NCBI GenBank assembly: GCA_000182565.2
Contig: KQ257452.1
Length of the DNA stretch: 64,000 bases
Direction: 5' to 3' (one strand)
DNA from: Spizellomyces punctatus DAOM BR117
Taxonomy: Eukaryota
In this document: in pieces, positions 1,237 to 5,514 of the stretch
How positions within the stretch are numbered: position 1 is the stretch's first letter
Layout: each line of letters opens with the position of its first letter
Program-made: the position numbers and the translations under genes
The notes under the pieces: model-generated
What the model saw: the letters and a program-made list of their open reading frames with translations, nothing else
Told to the model about the DNA's origin: nothing
Database searches by the model: none

Positions 1237-3860
1237 CTAAATAAGATCAATATCCCTGGTGTCCATATCTTCCGGCACATCTGTCGCATCCCGCTGTTTG
1301 GGTGCTTTGGCCGTTGTCAAGAATGGCAGTATATGATGGTTGAAATAATCCGCCAGTGCGTTCGCGAGGGTGCAGATTCCGCTGTGCGGTTGATTATACG
1401 TGAAGCAATTCGAGATAATGTTTCGGAAATCTTTGATGAAGCCGTCCAAATTATACTCGCCCGCTTGCACCTTCGTGCGCATTGTAAGAAGGTCCATCGG
1501 CTCCCGTATAAGTTCATAATACCCTGGCGCCACCAATGGATTCACAGGCGCTACGAAGGGGGCTGAAGACTTGTGATTGATCAGCATTACTAGCGCTTCC
1601 TTCATTGAAAGAGTCGTAGTCTCAGGGACTTCTGAGACAATATCCTACAAGGGTACAACTTTAGTACAGTTCCAGTATGCAAGACGATATGAAAGGTACT
1701 CCCTCATGCAATGTCATCTCACTCGCGTCCATATTGGTATCACGGGAACCCCATATGTAGATATCATGGTTTGCTTAGTGCGCAACCAGTCACTTTGTAA
1801 TGAAGGCCAGATAACCCATTGATGCACCAGTTAGCTCATAGAGCGTATGCAAGGATGTACCTCCTAAGGCTGATTGCACGCAAATGATAACTACGGGCGT
1901 GATACCGGACAGGAGAAGACACTCGCGAAGTTTCCTAGAACTATAACAATCAGAGTACGCAGTAAACAAAAACAATTACGCACCTTTGCCACAGTTTTCC
2001 TCTTCTTTCTAGCCGGAGGATTTGCACAATCGTCCATCTCCTCTGCTCCGTTCTCCACAACAACCCGTCTTCGCACCCTGATGGGCCTTTCACAGGCTTC
2101 GGCCTCGCTATCTACAGTATTGTTGGAGCCGAGGTCGCCGACTTTTAGATGGGTTTTGGTTATGCGGTTGGGGTTTTCAACATTCCAGGAAGAGGAAGCA
2201 GCTTCATCGTCGTCATCGTATTCTTCACTGCTATACGCTACTCGGCGGGGTGTTGTCGGAGAAGGTTCCTCCTCATCATTGCTATATTCCACCCGGCGGC
2301 GTGGTTTCGGGTTTTCAACTGATTTTCCCACAATGCTGCCTCCCAGACCATTCATCACCTCCTTAACATCCTTCCGTTCCCACACGGCGTTCAGCAGAAG
2401 GTAGATCAGTTCTAGGGCTTTACAATCATCATCCGGCCGGTGGAATTCGAGATTATAGCCGGGGAACAAAATGGGGGAAATATAATCCAGCCGAAGAGAA
2501 GGAAAATAACCGTCTAGCACATGGGTAATCGACGCGGCGGCATTCACGCTCATGCCCCTGGGTTTCGGTCGCCAAATTGCTTGTGCAGACCAAAATGGGT
2601 TAAAGAACGACCAGTGCGTGGGAATCTCGCCATATTTGTCAGTGTATATACGTGTCAAAATGTTCTTATCAACGTCGTTCGTAGACCACGAAACAAATAC
2701 ACAAGTGTCGTGCAGAAACTGCTTATGCCACAGGGTAGCTAAGTCCGATTCAGAAAATCTCGTTCCATGGACGTTGATGTACTGAGACTGAGCCGGCTTA
2801 TGGAGTATTTTCCAGCCCACATGATACGGCCTGACATCTTCGTGTTTCATTCTCGCCTTCATAAATGCCCACTCGAAGTCAAAGAAGATGATCTTCTTAT
2901 TATCAGTTGGGGGCACAAATGTTACTGTCCGCATGCGTCTTTGGACTTCGGTCGGATAATGTAGGAGATCCAGATAGGTGTAAGGAGGAGTAAATTTAGG
3001 CACCCACACCGGCCGAGAATCTGCAGACTGACTCTTCAAGTTCGGACGCCGACCATTCCAACTGGGCAAGCATGCCTTACAGTAATGATAATTCCCGTAC
3101 AGGAGCAGATCCAACACAGCAGGACAACGAAGGCATCTAACGGCATCCTGCGACTCTTTGTTTCGGCGCTCACGTGCATCTCTTCTTTGAATATGGCACT
3201 CTTTGCAGTAATAAAGTTTTCCGCCCTTAGTCAACGCTCCGACCTGGTCGGGCTCGTAACCACAATTTCCGCAAACTTTCCCTTCTTGAGCCAATAAGGA
3301 AAATTCCTTCGCTTCCTTGTCACAACCCTCACATCTATGATGTTTGCCGACCTTTATCAGAGGCCCCACAACCTTCGTGGACTTGGAACACCGATAACAG
3401 ATCTTCCCCTCTTGGGAGAGTCGCGAATGCTTGGCATATCCCTCTTTGGTAGCTGGGAGTCGTGCTACGAATGAAGGACTATGAGACCACGATCATAAAA
3501 GTCAAACAACAAAAGGATGAAGGATCGATAAAGAAGCATATATGTACTTAACCGTCGTAGTTACGTATTCATCTCGCGCTCGTGATTGTGACCTTTGCAA
3601 TGTGCAGTTCAACTGGCGGCGTCTGGCAGATGAGCTTGCAACCAAATTGCATATCATGCCGCGCTTCCGAAAATTCGGGGGCAATCAATGAAAGGAGGCT
3701 CAACAGCACGCTCATCCTAACCGCCAGTATGGTCGAGGGACTGCAGATTCGTCACCGAGCAGTGAAATGTAACTATATGGGGGTAGCAAGCTTGCCGTGG
3801 GGTGGTTCTGTGACTGAAATATTTACCAGCAGGGCGTTTGCTTGGCTTTGTCTTGGGCAT
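1237..3860 (-). CDS. Putative zinc-ribbon repeat / DEDDh exonuclease / bromodomain protein (multi-exon; start uncertain)
   Basis: The large exon (~1984-3460) has CxxC pairs and Exo motifs IIFFDFEW, SWSTNDVD and FHRPDDD. The last exon (1237-1644) is a bromodomain (PFVAPVNP..PGYYELIREPMDL..NCFTYN). GT-AG introns join them in frame. Confidence 0.65.
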
Positions 3861-4208
3861 TGTGAAGCAATGAACGGCGATATTAAGTGCTGCGAGGATG
3901 GATGTTGGCACTTGGGTGTGTGGGAAACGGTGCACGCAGTTGGTTTCCTTGTCTGAACCTGTGTGAAGCTGGTGAGCTGTGGTGTTTCGTTAAACCTTGC
4001 AGGGCTTTTTACTTTACACTCTAAGATGCATGAGGAGCTGTGGAGCAAATGGTGAGAGTGGCTGGTTAATCAATATGGACTCTTATGGAAGATCACGTGG
4101 CAATTCCCGAAGAAAAAAGACCATATAAACAGACCTCTTTCTGCCTTCTGCCTTCTTCCCTCTTCACTCTTGCCCTTCAATCTGCGTACGGCTCGGCTCT
4201 CTAACAAC

Positions 4209-5514
4209 ATGAGCCACAGGAAGGCAAGTTTTCCAATGGTATTTAAATAAAGAGAATGCAACTAATTATTGTAATATGTATGGGCTTCGCATAGTTCGAA
4301 CACCCCCGTACGGGTTCCCTTGGTTTCCTGCCGCGTAAGCGTGCCAGGCGTCACCGGGGAAAGGTGAAGTCCTTCCCCAAGGATGATCCCTCGAAGCCCG
4401 TCCACCTTACGGCCTTCCTCGGTTACAAGGCGGGTATGACCCACATTGTTCGTGACTTGGACCGTCCTGGATCAAGTAAGCTGTTTGAAGCAAGCTTCAT
4501 ATAATGGAGGTCATGTTGGTAACAAAAAAACTCTTAACAGAGATGCACAAGAAGGAGGTCGTCGAGGCTGTGTCCATCATCGAGACACCTCCCATGGTCA
4601 TCGTTGGTGTGGTTGGTTACGTTGAGACTCCCCGCGGTCTCCGCTCCTTGGCTACCGTGTGGGCTGAGCACCTGAGTGATGAGGTGAAGCGTCGCTTCTA
4701 CAAGAACTGGTACCGCTCCAAGAAGAAGGCTTTCACCAAGTACGCCAAGAAGTACGCCGACGGAGGCAAGCCCATTGCCCAGCAGCTTGAGCGTATTAAG
4801 AAGTACTGCCAGGTTGTGCGTGTCATTGCCCACACCCAGATTCGCAAGGTTAAGATCGGTCAGAAGAAGGCCCACGTCATGGAGATCCAGCTCAACGGTG
4901 GCTCCGTCGCCGACAAGGTCAACTGGGCCAAGGAGCACTTCGAAAAGACTGTCGATGTCAGCTCTATCTTCGAACAGGATGAGATGATCGATATTATCGG
5001 TGTTACAAAGGGTCACGGTTTCGAGGGTGTCACTCACCGTTGGGGTACTAAGAAGCTTCCCCGTAAGACTCACAAGGGTCTCCGTAAGGTCGCTTGTATT
5101 GGTGCATGGCACCCGTCCCGAGTCATGTACTCGGTTCCTCGTGCTGGTCAGGACGGTTACCACCACCGTACTGAAATGAACAAGAAGATCTACCGTGTCG
5201 GCAAGGCTGGTGACAAGAACAGCGGTGCCACCGAGTACGACCTTACCCAAAAGACGATCACCCCTCTTGGTGGTTTCCCCCACTACGGTATCGTCAACGA
5301 GGACTGGATCATGGTTAAGGGATCCACCCCTGGTGTTAAGAAGAGGGTTCTTACTCTTCGCAAGTCTCTCCTGGTCCACACCAAGCGTTCGGCTTTGGAG
5401 AAGGTGCAGCTCAAGTTCGTCGACACCTCTTCCAAGTTCGGACACGGTCGTTTCCAGACTGCCAGCGAGAAGGCTTCCTTCTTCGGTACCCGCAAGAAGG
5501 ACATCCAGGCTTAG
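4209..5514 (+). CDS. RPL3: 60S ribosomal protein L3 (uL3), 3 exons
   Basis: [21 protein letters not shown]...[16 protein letters not shown]...KFGHGRFQT. Introns at 4224-4294 (GC-AG) and 4476-4540. Strong codon bias. Confidence 0.99.

Follow-up and report, generated by a model that had tools for sequence, protein, structure and literature searches.

A chytrid gene that probably joins zinc modules, a divergent DEDDh-like domain and a bromodomain

Can a nuclease carry, within its own polypeptide, the module that reads acetylated chromatin? The question is raised by a locus on the minus strand (3860-1237) of a 64,000-nucleotide (nt) stretch of contig KQ257452.1 from Spizellomyces punctatus DAOM BR117, the whole of which we call the window. 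Here a 533-codon stop-to-stop frame (3492-1891) holds three CxxC..CxxC units, exonuclease-type motifs, an acidic stretch and the basic motif RKKRK, and a second frame on the same strand (1644-1237) corresponds to a bromodomain. The original prediction for this locus, made from the letters of the sequence, had joined these parts into one gene. This is the most likely arrangement, because the sole full-length relative found, from Rhizophlyctis rosea, has a zinc unit, an exonuclease-like domain and a bromodomain together. We conclude that the locus is probably a single intron-bearing nuclear gene, encoding a protein of ~640 amino acids.

The main argument that the parts form one gene is the conserved order of domains in the R. 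rosea protein, which was predicted independently. An exhaustive phmmer search of 1.84 billion (1.84e9) representative proteins, with genomes lacking protein annotation outside its scope, returned three matches: the window's own open reading frame (ORF) and two proteins, both from chytrids. The first, P0003 (KAJ3039345.1, R. rosea, 485 amino acids, E 6.5e-26, 30% identity), is homologous to residues 92-361 of the frame that we call P0002 (493 amino acids, from 3462); the second, P0004, is a 150-residue fragment of a hypothetical protein from Geranomyces variabilis (E 1.6e-6). P0003 carries, in this order, a zinc unit (CX2C-X14-CX2H), an exonuclease-like domain and a bromodomain (PF00439, E 5.5e-20, residues 354-432), so that the combination of exonuclease-like domain and bromodomain which the original prediction had suggested looking for elsewhere does occur in a second chytrid. 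The window protein is 29-30% identical to it over the third zinc unit and the exonuclease-like domain, and the bromodomain exon is 38% identical (E 9e-20) in an alignment that starts from the first residue of the exon. Because a protein of 30% identity from another species has the third zinc unit, the exonuclease-type motifs (all three) and the bromodomain in the same order, the set of motifs is not a product of chance.

The two proteins differ outside this shared core. P0003 has one C3H-type zinc unit whereas the window protein has three C4 units; its bromodomain follows a short acidic stretch, without the acidic linker of ~115 residues, with its nuclear localization signal (NLS)-like motif, found in the window protein; and it begins with a long basic helical N-terminus where the window protein has its first two zinc units. 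Residues 14-74 of that N-terminus consist of repeated K/R-x-Y-x-Q/N units, whose resemblance to phage HNH endonucleases is weak and not significant (E 0.35). The public name of P0003, 'Tyrosine-protein kinase baz1b', is misleading, as Pfam finds in it a bromodomain alone and no kinase or WAC-type domain. A word-indexed protein search returned only the window's own ORF call and an alignment-based search nothing beyond P0003. When the family alignment was run against IMG/VR viral contigs and against metagenome contigs, none of the 45 and 128 pattern matches, respectively, was confirmed. As judged from these sequence searches, this is a very small family, whose named members all come from chytrids.

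How would the two frames be joined? In the gene model that we propose, read from the sequence and lying throughout on the minus strand, exon 1 (3827..3860) starts with an ATG, encodes MPKTKPSKRPA and ends with one further base (g) before a donor GT at 3826-3825. Intron 1 (3465..3826; 362 nt, GTAAAT..TCGTAG, phase 1) would end with the acceptor AG at 3466-3465, and joining exon 1 to exon 2 in phase gives MPKTKPSKRPA-A-RLPATKEG.. at the N-terminus. Exon 2 offers no ATG until residue 177, whereas the conservation with P0003 already includes the third zinc unit, which precedes that residue; a start exon further upstream is therefore required. Exon 2 (1984..3464), the open frame P0002, encodes the zinc units, the exonuclease-like domain, the acidic linker and the NLS-like RKKRK, and exon 3 (1237..1644) the bromodomain, ending with a stop codon at 1239-1237.

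Between them, the proposed intron 2 (1645..1983; 339 nt, phase 0, GTGCGT..TACTAAA..TTGTAG) has a GTGCGT donor at 1983, a branch-like TACTAAA 18 nt upstream of the acceptor, and a TTGTAG that ends at 1645. Among donor/acceptor pairs that keep the frame free of stops, 1645 is the sole acceptor and there are five candidate donors; the consensus for donors is GTRNGT, and 1983 is the only one of the five of this type, the other four being of poor consensus. The donor at 1983 named by the original prediction is thus retained, but the several short introns that were to follow it are not, since a single 339-nt intron of phase 0 suffices. Mini-exons within 1645-1983 seem unlikely: they are not needed and find no support from sense reads. 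The product called by the ORF finder, P0001, continues past the donor at 1983 for 34 further residues. Introns of this size do occur at the locus, as a 352-nt intron nearby on the other strand is spliced in five reads. A tblastn search within the 64-kb window found no second copy (paralogue) of the gene.

The bromodomain is the part of the protein that is recognized without difficulty. The exon at 1644-1237 matches Pfam PF00439 over profile positions 2-82 of 84, at E 1e-18 and with 67.5 bits where the cut-off is 21.7, and 379 distinct bromodomain sequences of the PDB match it at E ≤ 0.001. The pocket Tyr and Asn of bromodomains bind acetyl-lysine; both are kept here, the Tyr within P.YY..I..PMDL and the Asn within YN, in the segments GYYELIREPMDL and NCFTYNQPHS, which align with polybromo-1. 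In agreement with the original prediction, the exon is by all sequence measures a true, canonical bromodomain, predicted to bind acetyl-lysine. In this respect it is like the bromodomains of GCN5/PCAF, BPTF, BAZ2B, TAF1, BRD4 and PBRM1, with E values of 1e-12 to 1e-17 to single-bromodomain chains. The difference lies in its company: in known bromodomain proteins the partners are acetyltransferase, ATPase, PHD, SET, kinase-like or E3 modules, not a nuclease, whereas in the window gene the bromodomain stands beside a putative nuclease.

Whether that neighbour belongs among the DEDDh exonucleases is the harder question. The central domain (2371..2934; residues ~177-364 of P0002) contains an Exo I-type FFDFEW with its DxE (2869..2886), an Exo II-type SWSTNDVD (2668..2691, key D at 2670-2668) and an Exo III-type HRPDDD, or Hx4D (2425..2442), each, like the acidic linker and RKKRK, within a few bases of where it had been predicted. 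The Exo I D and E are kept in both sequences that cover the region (FFDFEW in the window, FLDTEF in P0003; the G. variabilis fragment P0004 does not extend to it), the Exo II D is invariant in all three family sequences, and so are the Exo III H and the fifth-following D (HRPDDD, HQSDED, HMPDHD). In other words, five residues of catalytic type, D209, E211, D265, H341 and D346 in the numbering of alignment A2, are kept across ~30% identity. The order DxE, D, Hx4D is that of the DnaQ/RNase T-like DEDDh enzymes (PF00929: Pol III epsilon, PolC exonuclease, TREX1, RNase T, ExoI, Cas2-DEDDh), and the order of strands and helices predicted by AlphaFold, at low confidence, is compatible with a DnaQ/RNase T-like fold.

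Three comparisons point the same way. In the ESM Atlas, the window domain has as its top match an 'Exonuclease domain-containing protein' (0.93), with RNase_T clusters at 0.91-0.92, although scores near 0.9 also arise by chance in 4-10% of shuffled proteins; for the P0003 domain, the RNase_T/DnaQ-like set accounts for 19 among the matches listed of 30, which also include the arenavirus nucleoprotein C-terminal domain. A wide VIA search with AlphaFold model 1 against 48,161 chains, independent of Foldseek, gave at least 45 of 50 rows that are by their titles DEDD-type or polymerase exonuclease domains, two that are clearly other (8b0j_L and 4bql_A) and three that are ambiguous. Its top rows are the PolC exonuclease (Z 6.8), Cas2-DEDDh (6.3), Pol III epsilon (6.3) and ExoI (6.2), followed further down by DinG, TREX1, Cap18, RNase T, QIP, 3'hExo, REXO2, ISG20 and many polymerase exonuclease regions; the model is poor and a Z below 8 is not significant alone, so that the weight of this result lies in the coherence of the list. 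DNA exonucleases make up most of the top neighbours, which differ from one another by no more than 1 in Z.

Finally, hhalign was used to align five PF00929 domains of Escherichia coli K-12 (dnaQ, orn, sbcB, rnt, exoX) with the three-sequence chytrid alignment. The local score was 21.9 (P 0.014), the alignment spanned 155 columns, and DxE, D and H..D were in register: the Exo II D pairs with the D in the HNaxFD motif of the E. coli domains, and the H and D of Exo III pair with their H..D motif. One of 200 column shuffles attained 21.9 (mean 12.0, standard deviation 2.2), and the reversed alignment scored 15.6. On the motifs, the language-model neighbours, the low-confidence model and this weak profile match, we consider it likely that the central domain has a DEDDh-like fold, lying beyond what current profiles call RNase_T.

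The zinc part is better modelled and less easily named. Two tandem C4 units and a third CxxC..CxxC unit had been predicted, and they are present on the minus strand at 3399-3070: unit 1 (3322..3399) and its tandem copy, unit 2 (3196..3273), have the spacing CX2C-X18-CX2C and are each preceded by QEGK, and unit 3 (3070..3135) has the spacing CX2C-X14-CX2C. It is unit 3 that is conserved in the R. rosea relative, as CX2C-X14-CX2H. AlphaFold models units 1 and 2 as a helix plus a beta-hairpin, with a predicted local distance difference test score (pLDDT) of ~90 over residues 10-100. The nearest structures by Foldseek are LIM domains and the ClpX zinc-binding domain (template modelling score 0.67-0.72 on the target, over 37 residues), with no match at E ≤ 0.001 and a best E of 0.005. 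Pfam gave sub-threshold matches for the zinc units, the best being FYVE_2 (E 0.16), and DZR (PF12773) reached E 1.0, with 10 bits against a cut-off of 27.3. The CX2C-X14-18-CX2C spacing and the beta-hairpin plus helix are alike in the tandem C4 zinc modules of LIM domains, the ClpX zinc-binding domain and zinc ribbons, but the window units have no significant Pfam or Foldseek match to any of these families, and for this reason 'zinc ribbon' is used here as a description and not as a family assignment. The acidic linker (1984..2370), which includes the NLS-like RKKRK (2010-1996), has no Pfam match and is probably disordered.

What can be learned from RNA? Raw reads came from one run (X9) with the same species label, of which about 6% was sampled. 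The first mate of this run represents the sense strand, since the neighbouring methylase gene on the minus strand has only minus reads and RPL3 only plus reads, and the library is strongly 3'-biased, the depth over the first exon of RPL3 being only 0.7. Sense depth over exon 3 (1220-1591) is 16, 7.6 and 1.5 in successive bins and falls to 0 over 1592-1963, in the proposed intron 2; it is 0 to 0.56 per bin, with several bins empty, across exon 2 and the 5' end. Sense reads are few at 3824-4071 and absent from 3576-3823, within the proposed intron 1. In addition, a 246-nt contig of run X1, which also holds spliced RPL3, is identical to 2065-2310 in exon 2, and a contig of run X2 covers 1272-1530 in exon 3. 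With depth low throughout the 5' region, the reads agree with the gene model and are insufficient to prove splicing.

The observations that weigh against one gene for a bromodomain-recruited exonuclease are best considered alongside the explanations that compete with it. No read of X9 spans the splice joints 1984/1644 or 3827/3464, the sole joint seen there being on the other strand, and the contigs of X1 and X2 each lie inside single exons and bridge neither intron. The strong 3' bias of the sole RNA run would explain why junction reads are missing; the fusion therefore rests on one gene model predicted in another species and on the logic of the splice signals. The locus might instead consist of two transcription units, one for a zinc-finger/exonuclease-like protein that reads through the donor, as P0001 does, and ends at a stop at 1891, and the other for a bromodomain-only protein that begins at a Met 14 codons into 1644-1237, at the start of the first bromodomain helix. 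The sense depth of 16 on exon 3, far above that on exon 2 (at most 0.4), would look alike if it came from a separate short bromodomain transcript, but the contrast also fits a library in which the 5' end of RPL3 is likewise poor in reads. Two units are harder to reconcile with the R. rosea relative, a single protein with both parts whose similarity to exon 3 begins at the first residue of the exon, upstream of that Met, or with a good donor, branch site and acceptor that happen to be in phase 0. A stand-alone bromodomain protein of 122 amino acids would, moreover, be unusual. We regard two transcription units as unlikely, and return to the single gene.

Within a single gene, the central domain may still not be an active exonuclease: it could have another fold that mimics DEDDh, or be a pseudo-exonuclease with a binding role, like those of Exuperantia, Egalitarian or ESRP1. 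No sequence profile recognizes it. Pfam gave no family match to the central domain at E ≤ 10, nor PF00929 in P0003 or P0004 at E ≤ 1, and because the PF00929 gathering threshold is not reached we file the domain as DEDDh-like only and not as a member of PF00929. Neither phmmer nor profile searches of PDB sequences matched it (the best profile rows being ATRX-type zinc-finger noise at E 0.2), PHROGs gave no match, and the family profile run against six-frame E. coli K-12 found no DEDDh gene and one chance match antisense to frdA. The original assignment to DEDDh, with which the motifs and the comparisons above agree, is to this extent only partly supported. The AlphaFold check that had been proposed for the domain was likewise divided: pLDDT is low in both models, built from alignments of 3 and 4 sequences (24-62 in the window protein, and 23-54 in P0003, where the bromodomain reaches ~80), and Foldseek with model 1 found no exonuclease at E ≤ 0.001 and recognized the zinc part alone, but the same model draws almost nothing except DEDD exonuclease domains in the VIA search. 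There the best Z of 6.8 does not exceed the 7-8 that models lacking a true match typically reach; hhalign assigns a probability of only 3%; and the Exo I-Exo II spacing of 56 residues is below that of well-known DEDDh enzymes. This short spacing, its invisibility to the PF00929 hidden Markov model, and its zinc and bromodomain flanks set the window domain apart from the known enzymes. The structural searches did return pseudo-exonucleases: VIA gave Exuperantia (Z 5.2) and ESRP1 (Z 4.3), and Foldseek gave Egalitarian (E 0.14). Pseudo-exonucleases have, however, usually lost catalytic residues, and in this family all five are kept across ~30% identity; two divergent members fall independently on RNase_T clusters, and the hhalign match has the motifs in register. 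An inactive or unrelated central domain seems to us improbable. More improbable still is the suggestion, made in the original prediction, that a gene of viral or mobile-element origin was inserted between the methylase gene and RPL3 and became domesticated. A very narrow and patchy distribution would suit such an origin, as would nearest language-model clusters composed largely of phage proteins and the weak, non-significant resemblance (E 0.35) of the P0003 N-terminal repeats to a phage HNH endonuclease family. The phage-rich neighbours, though, mirror where divergent DnaQ-like domains are common and are no evidence of transfer. No terminal or flanking direct or inverted repeats were found, the GC content of the gene (0.44-0.52) is like that of its neighbours, and its introns look spliceosomal. 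No relative was confirmed among the 45 IMG/VR pattern matches or in PHROGs, tblastn of 50,697 phage records gave one irrelevant capsid match (E 1), and the bromodomain is a eukaryotic chromatin module.

The surroundings of the gene are as follows. The window as a whole has a GC content of 0.474 and contains 100 N, a scaffold gap. The gene is flanked by RPL3 (E 2.4e-154), as predicted, and by a methylase fragment that had been called METTL15, which we can describe as MraW/RsmH-type from a weak match (E 2.8e-5, under the Pfam cut-off). RPL3 and the gene studied are divergent with ~350 bp between their start codons, an arrangement in which a promoter region may be common to both. A spliced contig of run X1, in which 4223 is joined to 4295, confirms the first RPL3 intron (4224-4294, plus strand, 71 nt).

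At the other end of the gene, a polyadenylated plus-strand RNA at 857-1267 reaches a depth of 31-103 in X9 and is far more abundant than the transcript of the gene studied. Twenty plus-strand reads carry a poly(A) tail after 1267, 30 nt within the 3' end of the bromodomain coding sequence, and from the position of this site the transcripts of the two genes are convergent and overlapping. The segment 872-1223 (GT..AG) is spliced out in five reads, immediately after an ATG at 869-871, and acceptors at 1069, 1227 and 1235 may serve as alternatives, to judge from loose read ends. Once spliced, the RNA codes for few residues; unspliced, it has a low-complexity ORF of 77 codons. It has no Rfam match and no C box. 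It includes, at 933-984, a microsatellite of GGATGGAT type with a period of 8 and 4 copies of a 28-nt register; an unrelated contig of run X1 matches this repeat alone. Plus-strand reads occur within the gene itself as well, at a depth of 1.2-1.8 across the proposed intron 2 (1592-1963) and of ~6.5 at 2460-2707 in the exonuclease-like exon, beside a plus-strand A-rich stretch at ~2691-2705. The latter could be an antisense RNA caught through internal oligo-dT priming.

Taken as a whole, we hypothesize a protein with a short basic N-terminus, three C4 zinc modules, a divergent DEDDh domain, an acidic linker with an NLS, and a C-terminal bromodomain. RKKRK would bring the protein, translated from a transcript spliced as proposed above, into the nucleus, where the bromodomain would dock on acetyl-lysine, most plausibly on the H3/H4 tails of active chromatin. 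The zinc modules would hold nucleic acid or a partner, and the putative DEDDh site would trim DNA or RNA 3' ends there through two-metal-ion hydrolysis. We lean towards this reading of one gene for a divergent DEDDh exonuclease recruited by its bromodomain. The more specific proposal, that the protein is an active DEDDh 3'-5' exonuclease which its own bromodomain tethers to acetylated nucleosomes, there trimming the 3' ends of nascent RNA, R-loops or DNA, is possible but doubtful.

The domain architecture is probably new. To our knowledge no characterized nuclease has a bromodomain, and no characterized DEDDh member occurs in the context of zinc modules and a bromodomain. As far as the full-text literature could be judged, with co-mentioning papers assessed as unrelated by their titles and the beginnings of their abstracts and supplementary tables outside the scope, it holds no description of a bromodomain-exonuclease fusion, in keeping with the original statement that no protein of this architecture has been characterized. 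What would be new here is this architecture together with a DEDDh-like subfamily that profile libraries do not recognize. The value of the finding is limited for now by the very small size of the family, with two relatives in 1.84e9 proteins. Nevertheless, adding the central-domain family to profile libraries would improve annotation, as its sole named relative is mislabelled as a BAZ1B tyrosine kinase.

The enzymes that bromodomains are known to direct to acetylated chromatin include acetyltransferases, remodellers, methyltransferases and E3 ligases. If the more specific proposal of an active, tethered exonuclease is true, no earlier nuclease would have had an acetyl-lysine reader of its own, and the protein would offer a natural template for nucleic-acid processing targeted by chromatin state. 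The coupling of a nuclease to a bromodomain within one polypeptide would extend acetyl-lysine reading to a new class of effector. It would also suggest that chromatin-coupled 3'-end processing or surveillance takes place in early-diverging fungi.

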